This document shows positions 997 through 9,047 of a stretch of DNA of 64,000 nucleotides, piece after piece (position 1 is the stretch's first letter; each line of letters begins with the position of its first letter). The notes below the pieces were generated by a model that saw only the letters and a program-made list of their open reading frames with translations, was not told the origin of the DNA and made no database searches. Origin of the DNA: an uncultured Acidimicrobiia bacterium (GTDB taxonomy: Bacteria > Actinomycetota > Acidimicrobiia > Acidimicrobiales > AC-14); NCBI GenBank assembly GCA_963836205.1, contig CAWIIV010000015.1, positions 96,001 through 160,000 on the forward strand, written 5' to 3'. The translations under genes were made by a program, and so were the position numbers.

Positions 997-1440
997 ATGG
1001 ACCCGGACCGAGCACCCGCGCCCACGTCGGGACAGATGCTCCGCCGTGGGCTGACCAAGCGGTGCCCCGTCTGCGGGAGCGGTCACCTGTTCGACGGCTG
1101 GTTCCGGATGAAGGAGCGCTGCCCCCGCTGCGACTACAAGTTCGAGCGGGAAGAGGGGTTCTTCCTGGGGGCGTACACGATCAACCTGGCCATCTCGGAA
1201 GGGCTCGTGCTCCTCCTGGCCATCGTGCCCCTGATCGCCCTGCTGGGCACCGGCCGTGACGTGGACATCTGGCCCATCGTGGTGATCGGCCTGGTCGCCG
1301 CCATCCTGGCGCCGCTCGTCTTCTACCCCTTCTCCCGCACCATCTGGTCGGCGATCGACCTGGTGCTGCGCCCGCCCGAGCAGACGGAGCCGGCCGACCG
1401 CCACCACGTCCGGCCCCCGGCGACCGGCCCCGCCCGATGA
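997..1440 (+). CDS. DUF983-like Zn-ribbon membrane protein
   Basis: RCPVCGSGHLF...CPRC followed by two hydrophobic segments; overlaps the kinase start (ATGA). Confidence 0.75.
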   Translation: MDPDRAPAPTSGQMLRRGLTKRCPVCGSGHLFDGWFRMKERCPRCDYKFEREEGFFLGAYTINLAISEGLVLLLAIVPLIALLGTGRDVDIWPIVVIGLVAAILAPLVFYPFSRTIWSAIDLVLRPPEQTEPADRHHVRPPATGPAR

Positions 1441-3020
1441 GCGAACGGGTGCTGGGCGGCCGCTACCGCATCGTCAGCCACGTGGCCAAGGGAGGGATGG
1501 CCGAGGTCTTCCTGGGCCACGACCAGCTCCTCGACCGGCCGGTGGCGATCAAGGTGCTCTTCCCCGGCCTGGCCGTGGACCCGACCTTCGTGGAGCGATT
1601 CCGGCGGGAGGCCCAGGCCGCGGCCGGCCTCAACCACCACAACGTGGTCTCGGTCTACGACTTCGGGCAGGACGACGGGGCGTACTACATCGTCATGGAG
1701 TACGTCGACGGTCCCACCCTGCGCGACATCGTCCGGGGCGAGGGGCCGCTGTCTCCGGCCAAGGTCATCGAGATCGGGGCCGAGATCGGGGCGGGACTGG
1801 CCGCCGCCCACCAGGAAGGCGTCCTCCACCGGGACATGAAGCCGGCCAACGTCCTCCTGACCAAGACGGGCAGCGTGAAGGTGGCCGACTTCGGCATCGC
1901 CCGCGCCGCCCACTCGGCCCGGGAGGGACTCACCATGCCGGGGGCGGTGGTGGGCACCGCCACCTACCTGTCGCCCGAGCAGGCCCTGGGCGAGCCCCTC
2001 GACCCCCGCTCCGACGTCTACTCGATGGGCATGGTGCTCTACGAGATGCTGGCCGGCCGCACGCCATTCACCGGCGACACGCCCGTTGCGGTGGCATACA
2101 AGCAGGTCAACGAGGACCCTCCCCCGCCGTCGGTGTACAACCCCGACGTCCCGCCCACGCTCGACGCCCTCGTCATGCGCGCGCTGGCCAAGAACCCGGC
2201 CGGTCGCCAGCAGTCGGCGGAGGCGCTGCGGGCGGAGCTGCTCGACGTCCGCTTCGGCGCCGCCGGCCCGGAGCCCACCATCGTCGCGGCCGGCGCCGCC
2301 GGCCCGGAGCCCACCATCGTCGCGGCCGGCGCCGCCGCCGGCGCCGCAGCGGCGACCCCCATGGCCGACGTCACCGCCACCGCCATCGCCGGCCCGCCCA
2401 CCACGATGATGGGTCCCCCGACGGGGGTCGACGCGGGGCCGCCCCCCGGCCCGCCGCGCCCGCCCCCGACCGCGGCGGCACCGCGCCCGCGGCCGGGGCC
2501 GGGCCCCGGTCCCTCCCCCTACCGCCGGCGGCAGGTGACGGTGGTCGTGGTGGTCCTGCTGGCGGGCCTCGCCGCCATCGCCCTGGCCAGCGCCCTCGGG
2601 GGCGACGACAAGGAGGGCGCACCGGTCACGGTGCCGCCGGTGGTCGGGATGGAGGTCAACGACGCCGTCGCCGAGATCCACCGGGTCGGCCTCAGCCCCC
2701 ACACCGAGACCAAGGACGACCTCGTCGGCGAGCGCGACCACGTCGCCGAGCAGGACCCCCCCGGGGGCACGACGGCCAAGGAGGGCGACACGGTGAGGCT
2801 CTTCCTCCCCGCCGGCAGCTCGGAGACGAGCATCACGACCACGCCCACCACCGGGCCGCCGACCACGCAGGCGCCGGCTACCACCCAGGCGACGACGCCG
2901 ACCACTCAGGCCCCGGCCACCACCGCCGCCACCGCGCCGCCCACGACCGCCCCCGTGGTGACGCTCCCGCCCACCACCACCCCGGTGCCGACGACCGTGG
3001 AGCCGGTGCCCACCACCTGA
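1437..3020 (+). CDS. PknB-like Ser/Thr protein kinase with TM helix, one PASTA domain and Thr/Pro-rich tail
   Basis: [21 protein letters not shown] and YLSPE motifs; TM helix; VPPVVGM...QDPPGGT PASTA-like segment. Confidence 0.93.
2256..2336 (+). repeat. 36-bp in-frame tandem repeat ([12 protein letters not shown] x2) in the kinase linker
   Basis: ggcgccgccggcccggagcccaccatcgtcgcggcc repeated twice. Confidence 0.85.
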
Positions 3021-3024
3021 CCTC

Positions 3025-4152
3025 TCAGTCGGCGGCGGCCACCACCACCTCCGTCGGCACCGGTGGCGGCGTCGTGAGCAGGGCCAGGCCGAAGCCGACC
3101 ATGCCGCTCATCACGGTGACGCCCGACCACAGCTCCACCGACCAGCCCACGGACCGGAAGGTCTCCAGCAGGGCGAAGTAGGTCAGCCACAGCACCGGCG
3201 GCACCGCCGCCGCCCATGCCCGCACCGCCCACGGGCGGTCGGGACGGGGACGGAGGCGCAGGTAGAGAACGTCGGCGACCAGGCCCGCGACCAGCGGGGC
3301 GAGGAAGCCGGGCCCGAGCTCGAACGTCTCGATGGCGGCGGTGAGGGCCCCCACCAGTCCGAAGAGGAAGGCGAACGTGCCGAAGGGCAGCGTCCACCGG
3401 CGGAGGAGGTACAGGGCGGGGGCCAACAGTATGACGGTGGTGACGAGGATGGCGGCGTAGCCCTCCAGCTGCACCTCCTCCACCAACCACGAGGCCAGGT
3501 CCTGGTCGGCGACGAAGAAGGCGGCGAAGTGGTAGGGCCCCTCGGTCATCGCCCCGGTGAGGAAGGGCGAGAAGACCATGAGGAAGAAGGCAACGCCGGC
3601 GGTGGACACCGTCGCCGACAACAGGGCCGGGAAGAAGGCGCGGAAGCCCGGCGCCCGGCTCGACGGGTCGGCCCAGGCTGAGCGGAGGGGGCTGCTCGTC
3701 ACCAGCACCCCGCCCGCGAACAGGATCAGGTGGGACGGGCTGAGCAGCGCCTCCAGGTCGATCTCGATGCCGAACACGGTGTGCCAGACCATGTCGAACA
3801 CACCGCCGGCGGCGAACAGGGCCACGCCCGCCAGGCCGAGCCCGTAGCCGACTGGGACACTCGCGGCCAGACCGAGCCCGGAGCCGGCGGCGCCCTCCGC
3901 CCGCCGCCGCTGCACCATCCAGGTCATCCACGCCGCGGTGGCGAGGAAGCCGGAATAGAACAGGGCGTGCCAGGGGGTGAAGAACGTCTCCGGCTTGTCG
4001 TTGTTGTGGGCCCAGCCGTCGACGAAGATCCCCCCGATCAGCCAGGTGGCGAAGACCATCGTGAGCAGGTCCTCCCGCCGGGTGGCGCGGGGTCGGGCAG
4101 TGGCAGCGGCGGCGGGGGGATGTCCGTCACCGACCGAGGCCGTCGAGCGCAT
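3025..4152 (-). CDS. Multi-pass membrane protein of unknown function
   Basis: 375-aa ORF with ~10 hydrophobic helices and DGWAH and DMVWH motifs. Confidence 0.75.
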   Translation of the reverse strand: MRSTASVGDGHPPAAAATARPRATRREDLLTMVFATWLIGGIFVDGWAHNNDKPETFFTPWHALFYSGFLATAAWMTWMVQRRRAEGAAGSGLGLAASVPVGYGLGLAGVALFAAGGVFDMVWHTVFGIEIDLEALLSPSHLILFAGGVLVTSSPLRSAWADPSSRAPGFRAFFPALLSATVSTAGVAFFLMVFSPFLTGAMTEGPYHFAAFFVADQDLASWLVEEVQLEGYAAILVTTVILLAPALYLLRRWTLPFGTFAFLFGLVGALTAAIETFELGPGFLAPLVAGLVADVLYLRLRPRPDRPWAVRAWAAAVPPVLWLTYFALLETFRSVGWSVELWSGVTVMSGMVGFGLALLTTPPPVPTEVVVAAAD

Positions 4153-6232: not shown

Positions 6233-6898
6233 TCCGGGTGCTCGTGGTCGACGACCACCCCATCGTCCGCCAGGGCCTGCGCTCGTTTCTCTCGAGCCGG
6301 GACGGGATCGAGGTGGTGGGCGACGCCGGCGACGGCGAGGCGGCGGTGGCGACGGTGGGCGAGCTGCGGCCCGACGTGGTGCTCATGGACCTGGTCATGC
6401 CCGGGATGGGCGGGCTGGCCGCCATCCGGGCCGTCTCCGACCTCGGCCTGGGCACTCGGATCCTGGTCCTGACCAGCTTCTCATCGGAGGACCAGGTCAT
6501 CCCCGCCATCCAGGCCGGGGCCGCCGGGTACCTCCTCAAGGACGCCTCTCCGGAGGAGGTGGAGGGGGCGGTGCGGGCGGTCCACGCGGGCGAGGGCCGG
6601 CTCGACCCGTCCCTCGCCGCGGTGGTGATGGCGGCCGCGGCCGGCGGCCACGAGCCGGGCCGACGACGACGGCCTGGCCCGGCTCACCCCCCGGGAGACC
6701 GAAGTCCTCCGCCTCCTGGGCGAGGGGCTGTCCAACCGGGCCCTGGCCGAGCGCCTGTTCGTGTCGGAGAAGACGGTGAAGACCCACGTCAGCAGCGTCC
6801 TGGCCAAGCTCGGACTCACCGATCGCACCCAGGCCGCCCTCTTCGCCGTCCACCACCGCCTGGTCGCCGACCTTCCTGGGCCGGAAAAGGGGCGCTGA
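6229..6898 (+). CDS. NarL/LuxR-family response regulator (one frameshift near 6655)
   Basis: VIRVLVVDDHPIVRQG receiver domain; HTH LTPRETEVLRLLGEGLSN...KTVKTHVSSVLAKL continues in another frame. Confidence 0.85.
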
Positions 6899-6981
6899 TA
6901 CACCTCCGACAGGGTCCCCCACTCGCTTGAGCAGGGGTCCCAGCGTGGAGTCGGCAACCCCGACCTCACAGGAGGATTCCG

Positions 6982-8385
6982 ATGGCCCACGTTGGAGGAC
7001 AGCTTCAAGCGCAGTTCATGGCCCGTATCCGCGGGCGTGACCCCGAGCGTTGCCTGGTGGTGCCCGTCGACGTCGGCAAGTCGTCGGCGATGGCGCTCGT
7101 CGCCGACCACTACGGCGAGATGGTCGTGGCGCCCTTCGAGTTCGTCCTCACCGAGACCGGGTTCGCGGTGCTGTCGGGAGCGATCGCCCGGGCCGAGGCG
7201 ACGCGCTCGGCCGAGGTCGTGCGGGTCGGGGTGGAATCGGCCGGGCACTACCACCGCACGCTCGTGGCCCGCCTGCGGGCCGGCGGCCACGAGGTCGTCG
7301 AGCTCAACCCGGCGGCGGTGAAGGAGGCCCGGTCCCAGCAGCTGCTGCGCCGCCTCAAGAGCGACGCCCGGGACCTGGGGGCGATGGCCGAGCTGATGAT
7401 CCGTGGCGCCGGCCGCCCCCCGGCGGTGCGCACCGACGCCCTGGCCACCCAGGGCGCATGGGTCGCCCACCGCCGGCGCAAGGTGTCGGCCCGGGTGGCG
7501 CTGGCCAACCAGGTCATCGGCCAGCTCGACCTGGTCTTCCCCGGCCTCGACGGCTGCTTCTCCGACCTGCTCGGCGCCCGCGCCGGGCGGGTGATCGTCA
7601 CCCACATCTGCGACCCCGACCGCGTCCGGCGCCAGGGGATCGAGGGCCTGCGTCGCTTCGTGGCCCGACGAGGCGTGACGCTGTCGGGGCCCAAGGCCAC
7701 CCAGGTTGTCGAGGCGGCCCGGGTGGCGCTGCGCCTGCCAGCCGCAGAGCGGGCCGTCCTGGGCAGGGTCTTAGCCGCTGACCTGGCTCTTCTCGCCAGC
7801 CTCGAGGCCGGGATCGTCGCCGCCGAGGTGTCCCTGGCCGAGGTCCTGGCGGACACCCCGGCGCGGATACTGACCTCCCTGCCCGGGGTGGCGGTGGTGC
7901 GGGCCTCGAACTACGGCGCCGGCATCGGCGACCCGGCCCGGTTCCCGAACGCGGCCGCCGCCTACCGGGCGGCGGGCCTGGTCCCGACGCTGTACGAGTC
8001 GGCCGGGAGATCCCGGTCCCGCCAGCACATCAGCCGGGAAGGCTCCGTCGAGCTGCGCCAGGCGATCATCGAGCTCGGCCGGGGCCTGGCCCAGCACGAG
8101 GCCGACTTCCGCCACTACCGCCGCCGGATCCTCGACTCGGGCAAGCCGGCCTCGGTGGCGGCCGTCGCCGTCGGCCATCGGGCCCACCGCCTGGCCTTCG
8201 CCATGCTGCGCGACCAGTTGCCCTACGACCCGGCCCGATGGACCGAGTCGGTGGCGGCGGGCATGACCGCCATGGCGAAGACCCGACGGGCCCACCAGAA
8301 CGACGTGACGTGCCCGCCGCCGGCCACCAGCGTGCCCGAAGGGGGTGAGGCCGACAACACCACCGCCAGACGCTCTCGGGGCTGA
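6982..8385 (+). CDS. IS110-family DEDD recombinase/transposase
   Basis: VDVGK, VESAGHY, KSDARD (DEDD RuvC); SLPGV and GLVP..YESAG (Tnp domain with catalytic Ser); RBS ggagga. Confidence 0.93.
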   Translation: MAHVGGQLQAQFMARIRGRDPERCLVVPVDVGKSSAMALVADHYGEMVVAPFEFVLTETGFAVLSGAIARAEATRSAEVVRVGVESAGHYHRTLVARLRAGGHEVVELNPAAVKEARSQQLLRRLKSDARDLGAMAELMIRGAGRPPAVRTDALATQGAWVAHRRRKVSARVALANQVIGQLDLVFPGLDGCFSDLLGARAGRVIVTHICDPDRVRRQGIEGLRRFVARRGVTLSGPKATQVVEAARVALRLPAAERAVLGRVLAADLALLASLEAGIVAAEVSLAEVLADTPARILTSLPGVAVVRASNYGAGIGDPARFPNAAAAYRAAGLVPTLYESAGRSRSRQHISREGSVELRQAIIELGRGLAQHEADFRHYRRRILDSGKPASVAAVAVGHRAHRLAFAMLRDQLPYDPARWTESVAAGMTAMAKTRRAHQNDVTCPPPATSVPEGGEADNTTARRSRG

Positions 8386-8399
8386 AACGCCCCGAGATC

Positions 8400-8565
8400 G
8401 GCGGCGGGGGGCCCGGACCGATGTCGAGTGCGCTACGACGTCCTTCGGGAACGTCGCTTCTAGCATGACGCCGGGTCCCTCCCACTGAAGCGAGCGCGAA
8501 CGTGGTTGCCTGACCCGCCCTCGGGCGAGGTCGCGTATGTCAGCGTGTGCCGCGAGGGAGGCCGC
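8400..8565 (+). ncRNA. Putative IS110 bridge RNA (target-binding and donor-binding loops)
   Basis: Guide pairs GTGCGCT/TCTAGC and GGTTGC/TGTCAGC flank internal hairpins and match the target and donor junctions; RNA ends are approximate. Confidence 0.7.
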
Positions 8566-8699
8566 CGAACCGGAAATCACCCCGAACCGGATCGACGCGC
8601 CCCTCGACGGACGCCTACTTCACCGCGGCTCCACAAGACTGTTGACAAACCAGACGGTTGCTAGACGCACCTTTTCATGCCCAAGACCGTCGTCGTGCC

Positions 8700-9047
8700 T
8701 CAGCTCATGGACCGGATGCGCAGGCCGCGAACTGGCTCGAAGTGCTTCGTGTTGCGGGTGGCAAGGCCAAGCCGGTGTTCCAGGGCGGTGGCTGCGATCA
8801 ACGCGTCGGGCAGGCGCAGGCCGGTCTCCCGCCGGATCCGCCCCGCCCGTTCGGCAACGGCGCAATCGACGGGAATCTCCCGGAACGGGGCGAGAACCCG
8901 GCCCGCCAGGTCGGTACCAGTGGCCCCGGCGAAGAGCTCGGCACGCGTGACGACCGAGTAGTGGAGTCGGTGCTGACCCGCCTTCAGCTCGACCGCACCA
9001 CGCAGATGATCGATGAAGATGTCCGTGTCGACGAGAATGTCAGCCAC
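8700..9047 (-). CDS. vapC: VapC-family PIN toxin
   Basis: ILVDTDIFID...TRAEL...LPDALIAATA...TRNTKHF PIN motifs. Confidence 0.9.
   Translation of the reverse strand: MADILVDTDIFIDHLRGAVELKAGQHRLHYSVVTRAELFAGATGTDLAGRVLAPFREIPVDCAVAERAGRIRRETGLRLPDALIAATALEHRLGLATRNTKHFEPVRGLRIRSMS

Follow-up and report, generated by a model that had tools for sequence, protein, structure and literature searches.

Whether the long non-coding 3' end of an IS110-family element encodes a bridge RNA, with guides that can be read against both the target and the ends of the element itself, is the question raised by this locus. The window (the whole 64,000-nucleotide stretch of DNA that was analyzed) carries one such element, and a preliminary description had proposed that four short motifs in its 3' end are the guides of such an RNA. 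As set out below, the 3' non-coding end very probably encodes a bridge RNA of approximately 165-170 nt (8396/8400-8566) that would guide the IS110 recombinase in the manner of IS621, for which this mechanism became known in 2024 (Durrant et al. 2024, PMC11208160).

The element, its copies and its insertion site

The element and its immediate surroundings comprise the following features.

6884..6896 (+): left half of an interrupted REP-like palindrome, of which intact copies elsewhere in the genome match the rejoined flanks
6890-6896 (+): left target GGGCGCT, the last 7 nt of the left palindrome half, including the core CT at 6895-6896
6897..6981 (+): left non-coding end, 85 nt, opening with the right donor GATAC and carrying a ribosome-binding site AGGAGG before the ATG
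6982..8385 (+): recombinase gene, an open reading frame of 467 aa with DEDD RuvC-like and Tnp domains; stop codon 8383-8385
8567..8662 (+): right-end tail, comprising the left donor ACGGTTG-CT (8654-8662) and, 15 nt from the end, a conserved TTGACA (8642-8647)
8663..8676 (+): right-hand half of that REP-like palindrome, opening with the right target (first 3-4 nt, AGAC)

The element spans 6897-8662 (+), or 1,766 bp with one copy of the CT core counted at the right end, and its sequence assigns it to the IS110 family. The 467-aa recombinase matches both domain models of the family (PF01548, 9e-24; PF02371, 9.5e-14) and just passes the cut-off of 140 bits for NF033542, "IS110 family RNA-guided transposase", with 145.3 bits. 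Its C-terminal domain resembles the solved recombinases of IS621 (8wt6, 6.6e-10) and ISCro4 (2e-09), with Ser340 in a YES motif aligned to the IS621 YES serine. In addition, E85, D127 and D130 align with IS621 in a weak N-terminal stretch, and the first aspartate (D30 in VDVGK) was placed by eye only. The roles of the aligned serine and DEDD residues are taken from IS621.

Three near-identical copies are present in the host genome (25 contigs, 4.05 Mb), on contigs C15 (the window), C6 and C14; the C6 copy is identical to that of the window, and the C14 copy differs at one base, at 8009. Different ends in other copies, which the preliminary description had named as speaking against its reading, were not what was found: in all three copies a flank with CT as its last bases is followed by GATACAC, the copy stops with GACGGTTGCT, and both of these ends are conserved among homologues. 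The flanks of the three copies read as follows.

C15 (window) copy: left GGGGCG-CT, right AGACGC
C6 copy: left AGAACG-CT, right AGACCC
C14 copy: left GGTGCG-CT, right AGATCT

CT is present once per junction in all three copies, and the junction strings on which the preliminary description had built were recovered as GGGGCG-CT/GATAC (CT at 6895-6896) and ACGGTTG-CT/AGAC (CT at 8661-8662). When the flanks of the window copy are rejoined they form a 27-nt palindrome, GAAAAGGGGCG-CT-AGACGCACCTTTTC, and two uninterrupted REP-like repeats in the same genome (C14:244322 and C25:71757) are one base off this rejoined site, with CC for CT; the similarity to the C14 repeat extends over 57 nt. As the rejoined flanks closely resemble an uninterrupted repeat, the boundaries are 6897-8662, with CT shared between element and target and no duplication besides CT. 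The palindrome family (GAAAAGG, 8-22 nt, CCTTTTC) has 19 strict copies in the genome, and the window copy sits at the apex of one such repeat, with the C6 and C14 copies outside them. Comparison of the first with the last 80 nt of the element gave no subterminal inverted repeat above chance (the best was 6 nt, equalled in 232 of 300 shuffles), in agreement with the preliminary description, which had seen no obvious ones. The element is recently active.

Several observations were made around the copies. The C6 copy is nested in a decayed relative (L002; G000 C6:607649-611482, minus strand), of which ~375 bp on the left (87% identical) and ~156 bp on the right (86% identical), the latter beginning inside the donor loop, were recognized; ~1.5 kb of unrelated DNA is enclosed, and the decayed relative's own flanks are CTCGCCG-CT and AGAGAACG. 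The TTGACA at 8642-8647 is perfect and largely conserved in homologues, and in the circle it would lie 17 nt before TACACC (6899-6904), a possible junction promoter like those of other IS110-family elements, with a poor -10 part. A linear scan of 6800-8800, sigma-70-like sites included, gave no promoter-like or terminator-like site. Read by eye, the gene end upstream of 6896 is presumably that of a LuxR-type response regulator, and we take the 115-aa open reading frame at 8700-9047 (-) to be PIN/VapC toxin-like.

RNA structure and covariation of the target guides

The non-coding right end measures 277 nt versus 85 nt for the left end, and the predicted RNA lies within it, downstream of the recombinase gene.

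8396..8566 (+): predicted bridge RNA, the extent of covariance model R1
8400-8405 with 8560-8566 (+): outer stem, enclosing both modules
8407..8480 (+): predicted target-binding module, with basal stem and distal hairpin both showing compensatory changes
8407-8416/8471-8480, 8422-8425/8467-8470 and 8436-8456 (+): parts of the target module, namely basal stem, short helix and, after an internal loop, distal hairpin
8428..8434 (+): predicted left target guide GTGCGCT (5 nt + CT), oriented like the left flank's top strand
8459..8464 (+): predicted right target guide TCTAGC, reverse complement of G-CT-AGA
8490..8553 (+): predicted donor-binding module, with basal stem 8490-8497/8547-8553, internal loop and distal hairpin 8511-8533
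8504..8509 (+): predicted left donor guide GGTTGC, which recurs at the right end as 8655-8660 (GGTTG plus the C of the core)
8538..8544 (+): predicted right donor guide TGTCAGC; conservation against the left end is limited to its 3' part (T)CAGC, which is complementary to G-CT-GA

Homologues for comparison came from ten loci of a genome collection, with 67-90% amino acid identity and mostly from Acidimicrobiales MAGs; a search of genomes of the same order yielded matches in 7 of 401, the window's own included (E <= 1e-40). None of the conclusions depends on the unpublished genome G169. The hosts of the homologous elements are Actinomycetota, consistent with the actinobacterial clade that had been suggested. 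The consensus fold consists of the outer stem, the target module and the donor module, with a basal stem, internal loop and distal hairpin in each module, and it contains the hairpins and closing stems that the preliminary description had named. In an alignment of eight homologous 3' ends (A1), counted with the guide loops unpaired, 95.2% of cells were paired and 12 pairs showed a compensatory change, compared to 34-50% of cells and 0-2 compensatory pairs in slid controls. Model R1 was also run on 34 metagenome contigs found by a degenerate donor-loop pattern, all 34 of which matched. In the resulting alignment of 28 distinct rows (A3), 94.0% of cells were paired and 25 of 45 pairs showed a compensatory change, compared to 35-47% and 2-10 in slid controls, figures in which the structure is favored because the model itself was used to fit the alignment. 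Conservation of the second module equals that of the first, compensatory changes included.

The energy of the single-sequence fold is ordinary (z = -0.97, with 28 of 200 shuffles folding equally well), and a search of Rfam gave no matching family (best E-value 1.2, matches irrelevant). A search of sequencing runs for the stretch gave no RNA run, and DNA runs shared at most 0.18 of the sampled words with it. No R1 match was present at L013 and L017, nor at L023, which shares a contig with L017; the L017 contig stops ~270 bases past the matched part of the gene.

All four motifs lie where the preliminary description had read them (GTGCGCT at 8428-8434, TCTAGC at 8459-8464, GGTTGC at 8504-8509 and TGTCAGC at 8538-8544), and they follow the IS621-type layout it had recognized, with the target loop first and the donor loop second, the 5' side of each in top-strand sense and the 3' side complementary to the top strand. 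This ordered four-motif arrangement arose in 0 of 20,000 mononucleotide shuffles of the non-coding end, and the target pair alone in 116 of 20,000. The left guide GTGCGCT agrees with the copies' own left flanks at 7/7 positions in the C14 copy, 6/7 in the window copy and 5/7 in the C6 copy.

Among homologues, the counterparts of 8428-8434 and 8459-8464 vary, and they track the flanks of each individual element. In L011 both guide and flank read TTCCGCT, and in L060 the left guide CTAAGCT is identical to its flank CTAAGCT, with a right-guide complement of GCTAAGGA beside the flank CTAAGGA. The right-guide complement and flank are GCTAACGGCG and CTAACGGCGG in L018, and GCTAGGCAC and CTAGGCAC in L047. 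Covariation between guides and flanking DNA, a check that the preliminary description had proposed, was found on both sides. On the left, over 26 unique pairs and the six positions before CT, own guides and flanks matched at 111 of 149 positions against a permuted mean of 61.5, and on the right, over 38 unique pairs and the six positions after CT, at 135 of 228 against 94.3; each value was reached in 0 of 20,000 permutations, figures that overstate independence as related elements share guides and targets by descent. Four flanks were excluded from the permutation count (on the left L059 and L062, of the 3.4-kb type described below; on the right L074 and L050, miscalled), L014 and L063 are a single insertion that was entered twice in the left count, and left ends are absent from the L022 and L026/L031 contigs. 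In the genome-only set an earlier count gave 53/63 on the left and 38/65 on the right; with one site per RNA, the counts were 37/43 (0 of 20,000 permutations) and 28/45 (28 of 20,000), respectively. By position relative to the core, matches to the own flank and the match frequency with the flanks of other elements were distributed as follows.

Position -8: own flank 4/23; other elements' flanks 0.19
Position -7: own flank 14/24; other elements' flanks 0.27
Position -6: own flank 17/24; other elements' flanks 0.29
Position -5: own flank 24/26; other elements' flanks 0.29
Position -4: own flank 26/26; other elements' flanks 0.38
Position -3: own flank 26/26; other elements' flanks 0.92
Position +1: own flank 33/38; other elements' flanks 0.83
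Position +2: own flank 36/38; other elements' flanks 0.49
Position +3: own flank 28/38; other elements' flanks 0.29
Position +4: own flank 16/38; other elements' flanks 0.32

As the signal is confined to positions -3 to -7 and +1 to +3, the specified target is 5 nt + CT + 3 nt, and the extent of the left 7-mer and the right 6-mer as originally delimited agrees with it. Mismatched right flanks were seen in L022 and L048 (0/6 each), L055 (1/6) and L012 (2/6), and the right junctions of two tandem relatives in genome G351 match their right guide at 1/6 (copy A) and 3/6 positions.

CT stands at both junctions of every element examined. Immediately ahead of it, the left guides of L018, L022 and L026 carry an A, as does the left flank of L018. 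As both guide and flank of L018 carry this A, the G before CT is specified by the guide, and the GC(T) core of the preliminary description gives way to a core that these sequences indicate to be CT, the same as in IS621. In L020 (3911-4145), a 73% relative, the core position of the right target guide is altered (reverse complement GTTAGC) and the conserved right end is missing; this element is probably a decaying copy.

Donor guides and the proposed mechanism

In every element of the main clade, the 6-nt guide GGTTGC is repeated at the right end. The metagenome set provides no independent test of the donor side, as it was selected on the GGTTGCC motif, and co-change of donor guides with element ends comes from two divergent lineages. 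The first consists of the tandem copies in G351 (53-54% amino acid identity), in which the donor guide is ACACGCGC and the right end ACACGCGCT. The second is L036, an element on a Streptomyces plasmid (48% amino acid identity) that matches R1 with 65.6 bits (E 1.9e-10), and in which all four guides are changed, each still matching its own junctions: the target guides are CAAGTA (left flank) and GCTGGCTGC (right junction), and the donor guides AACAGC (right end) and TACTCAT (left junction). For the right donor guide, reliable pairing is limited to CT and the next 2-3 nt, GA(T), and the rest of this guide varies without a counterpart in the conserved left end GATACA. Of the earlier proposal that the second loop matches both ends, the left guide has co-change in two lineages on its side, and the right guide is supported only for CT and 2-3 bases.

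A mechanism is proposed here by analogy with IS621, building on what was observed directly, that is, the element ends, the copy number, the covariation of the RNA structure, the covariation of guides with flanks and the match of the donor guides. The RNA would be transcribed, processed and bound by the recombinase, with circle formation and catalysis following as in IS621. In the first loop, the left target guide GTGCGCT would pair with the bottom strand over 5 nt + CT left of the insertion point, and the right target guide TCTAGC with the top strand over CT + AGA. In the second loop, the left donor guide GGTTGC equals the right end, and for the left end the right donor guide CAGC would pair with CT-GA. 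Excision by the recombinase would yield a circle in which right end, CT and left end are joined, and strand exchange would take place at the shared CT between this circle junction and a ~10-bp target of the form N5-CT-N3, with no target duplication on insertion. We infer that the enzyme is a programmable recombinase.

The donor side is also where the strongest competing explanation has to be weighed, namely that the functional RNA is a short, seekRNA-like target guide made of the first module (~8407-8480), with the second module structural or regulatory and the element ends recognized by protein. A right donor guide limited to CT and 2-3 nt fits this explanation, as do a Rhodococcus relative that matches the model only over the first module, its second module being much reduced, and the short RNA of 74-96 nt that predominates in the elements described in sections 9 and 12 of Siddiquee et al. 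(PMC11187229). It is nonetheless unlikely, given a left donor guide whose 6 nt agree with the right end in every GGTTGC element and change together with that end in the G351 copies and L036, a second module equally conserved and with compensatory changes of its own, and an outer stem that surrounds both modules. The bridge RNA with a target loop and a donor loop is the reading retained in what follows.

Relation to known systems and divergent relatives

IS110-group elements as a rule encode the RNA upstream of the gene, in the left end. In the IS1111 group a downstream RNA is the rule (PMC11208160 section 12; PMC11187229 section 6), and section 6 of PMC11187229 already describes some IS110-type elements with a downstream non-coding region. 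The position of the RNA at 8396-8566, after the stop codon at 8383-8385, is therefore as the preliminary description had it, and loses its novelty through these known cases.

That position also raises the possibility that the element belongs to the IS1111 group and has that group's typical seekRNA arrangement; with the group it would share the long non-coding region downstream of the gene and the short left end (85 versus 277 nt; PMC11208160 section 12, PMC11187229 section 6). Against this stand the lack of a subterminal inverted repeat above chance, a bottom-strand match located 5' of the top-strand one, the order given for IS110-type elements in sections 9 and 12 of PMC11187229, and a protein of 467 aa compared to 330-350 in the IS1111 family. 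Furthermore, similarity to IS4321 is found mainly in 122 C-terminal residues, and the IS110-like ISBth13 aligns over 85% of the query, a rough placement only, taken from a pairwise protein comparison and a plasmid tblastn listing. An IS1111-group assignment is very improbable on this evidence. Scarcely tenable at all is the view that the 3' end is a conserved untranslated structure (a terminator or mRNA stabilizer) with coincidental guide matches and a target chosen by the protein, which the ordinary fold energy would suit and which is already contradicted by guide positions that change with the flanks in many elements and by a four-motif arrangement found in 0 of 20,000 shuffles.

The bridge RNA proposed here has its closest model in IS621 (PMC11208160; 8wt6-8wt9), whose RNA, as sections 6 and 7 of that paper describe it, has the target loop first and the core in all four pairings. 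Shared features are a DEDD + Tnp recombinase, two internal loops in the order target then donor, a CT core inside the guides, no terminal inverted repeats and, for the window copy, a REP-like target. Unlike in IS621, the RNA of the window element lies in the right end, downstream of the gene, instead of the left, an outer stem surrounds both loops, and the guides are shorter (target ~5+2 and 2+3), with ~22-24 guide bases in all by our own count versus 28; for comparison, section 8 of an October 2026 preprint (10.64898/2026.10.21.760802) gives 12-40 programmable nucleotides per bridge RNA, with a median of 25 and 28 for IS621. The protein differs as well, at 467 residues versus a chain of 328, with significant similarity limited to the C-terminal domain.

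The IS110-type seekRNA element ISEc21 (PMC11187229 section 12) has in common with the window element a bottom-strand match 5' of the top-strand match and no long subterminal repeat, and differs from it in an RNA upstream of the gene; its target is a conserved stretch within IS3-family transposase genes, and L036 from Streptomyces sits between parts of an ISKra4-family transposase frame. The IS1111-group elements ISEc11, ISPa11, ISKpn4 and IS4321 resemble the window element in a long non-coding region and RNA downstream with a short left end, and the group's 7-17-bp subterminal inverted repeats, reversed order of top- and bottom-strand matches and 330-350-aa proteins are not seen in it. ISPpu9 and ISPpu10 of Pseudomonas putida are likewise of the IS110 family (PMC12288879; 10.64898/2026.03.19.712850), ISPpu9 inserting into repetitive extragenic palindromic sequences and having a small-RNA gene downstream of the gene for its transposase in five copies. 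Unlike these, the window element is from another host phylum and has other sequences, and only one of its three copies is in a REP-like repeat. Among the papers listed by a literature search, none treats bridge RNAs of actinobacterial IS110 elements, and the clade may already figure in Supplementary Table 5 of Durrant et al. or in Fig. 1b ("green group") and Supplementary Fig. 2 of Siddiquee et al.

The known mechanism is unchanged by these results, and bridge RNAs have already been modelled in bulk by large surveys, the October 2026 preprint alone covering 32,190 bridge RNAs and 86 covariance models (10.64898/2026.10.21.760802). What distinguishes the window element within this known kind is the right-end position of the RNA and the short guides. 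It would provide a natural bridge-RNA system of soil actinobacteria with high GC content that is cleanly resolved, with verified ends and a directly readable RNA, and the more than 20 naturally reprogrammed target guides form a ready data set for the guide rules of the clade (5 nt + CT + 3 nt). In addition, a right-end RNA can evidently keep the IS621 loop order, which bears on the divergence of the IS110 and IS1111 groups, and the system may offer a recombinase suited to high-GC hosts. Tentatively, the actinobacterial clade might represent a distinct lineage in which an IS621-type bridge RNA has moved to the right end without the long subterminal repeats or reversed guide order of IS1111, with unusually short guides (target ~10 bp) and with 3.4-kb, WhiB-carrying derivatives whose second target-loop-like motif may confer a second target specificity.

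These derivatives form a subclade of ~3.4 kb (L018 738-4130; L022, L031, L059, L062) in which the left end is separated from the recombinase gene by ~1.7 kb; portions of this insert (~0.7-1.0 kb) are conserved in L022 and L031. The insert contains a WhiB-domain reading frame (PF02467, 27.8 bits), and in L059 and L062 the left-end motif lies ~3.2 kb upstream of the RNA. A weak second R1 match occurs inside the left end of the 3.4-kb elements (L018 808-964 (+), 30.8 bits; L031 1-100 (+), 41 bits), and it consists mainly of a target-loop-like module with guide-like bases of its own, TTCTAAGC and CACTTAGC.

On contig C18 of G351, the two relatives of 53-54% identity lie head to tail (L029 1129-3175; L025 ~1400), so that the right end ACACGCGCT of one abuts the left end GATACAAGG of the next, and the right flank of the pair mismatches the right guide. 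The right end resembles the element's own left target (6/7), which could explain the insertion there. The Streptomyces element L036 (Streptomyces sp. plasmid NZ_CP108391, ~1400-3165) lies downstream of an ISKra4-family transposase gene, ~880 bp from the annotated end of that gene. Its right flank reads by eye as what we take to be IS256-type transposase coding sequence, which recalls the targeting of other transposase genes by ISEc21.
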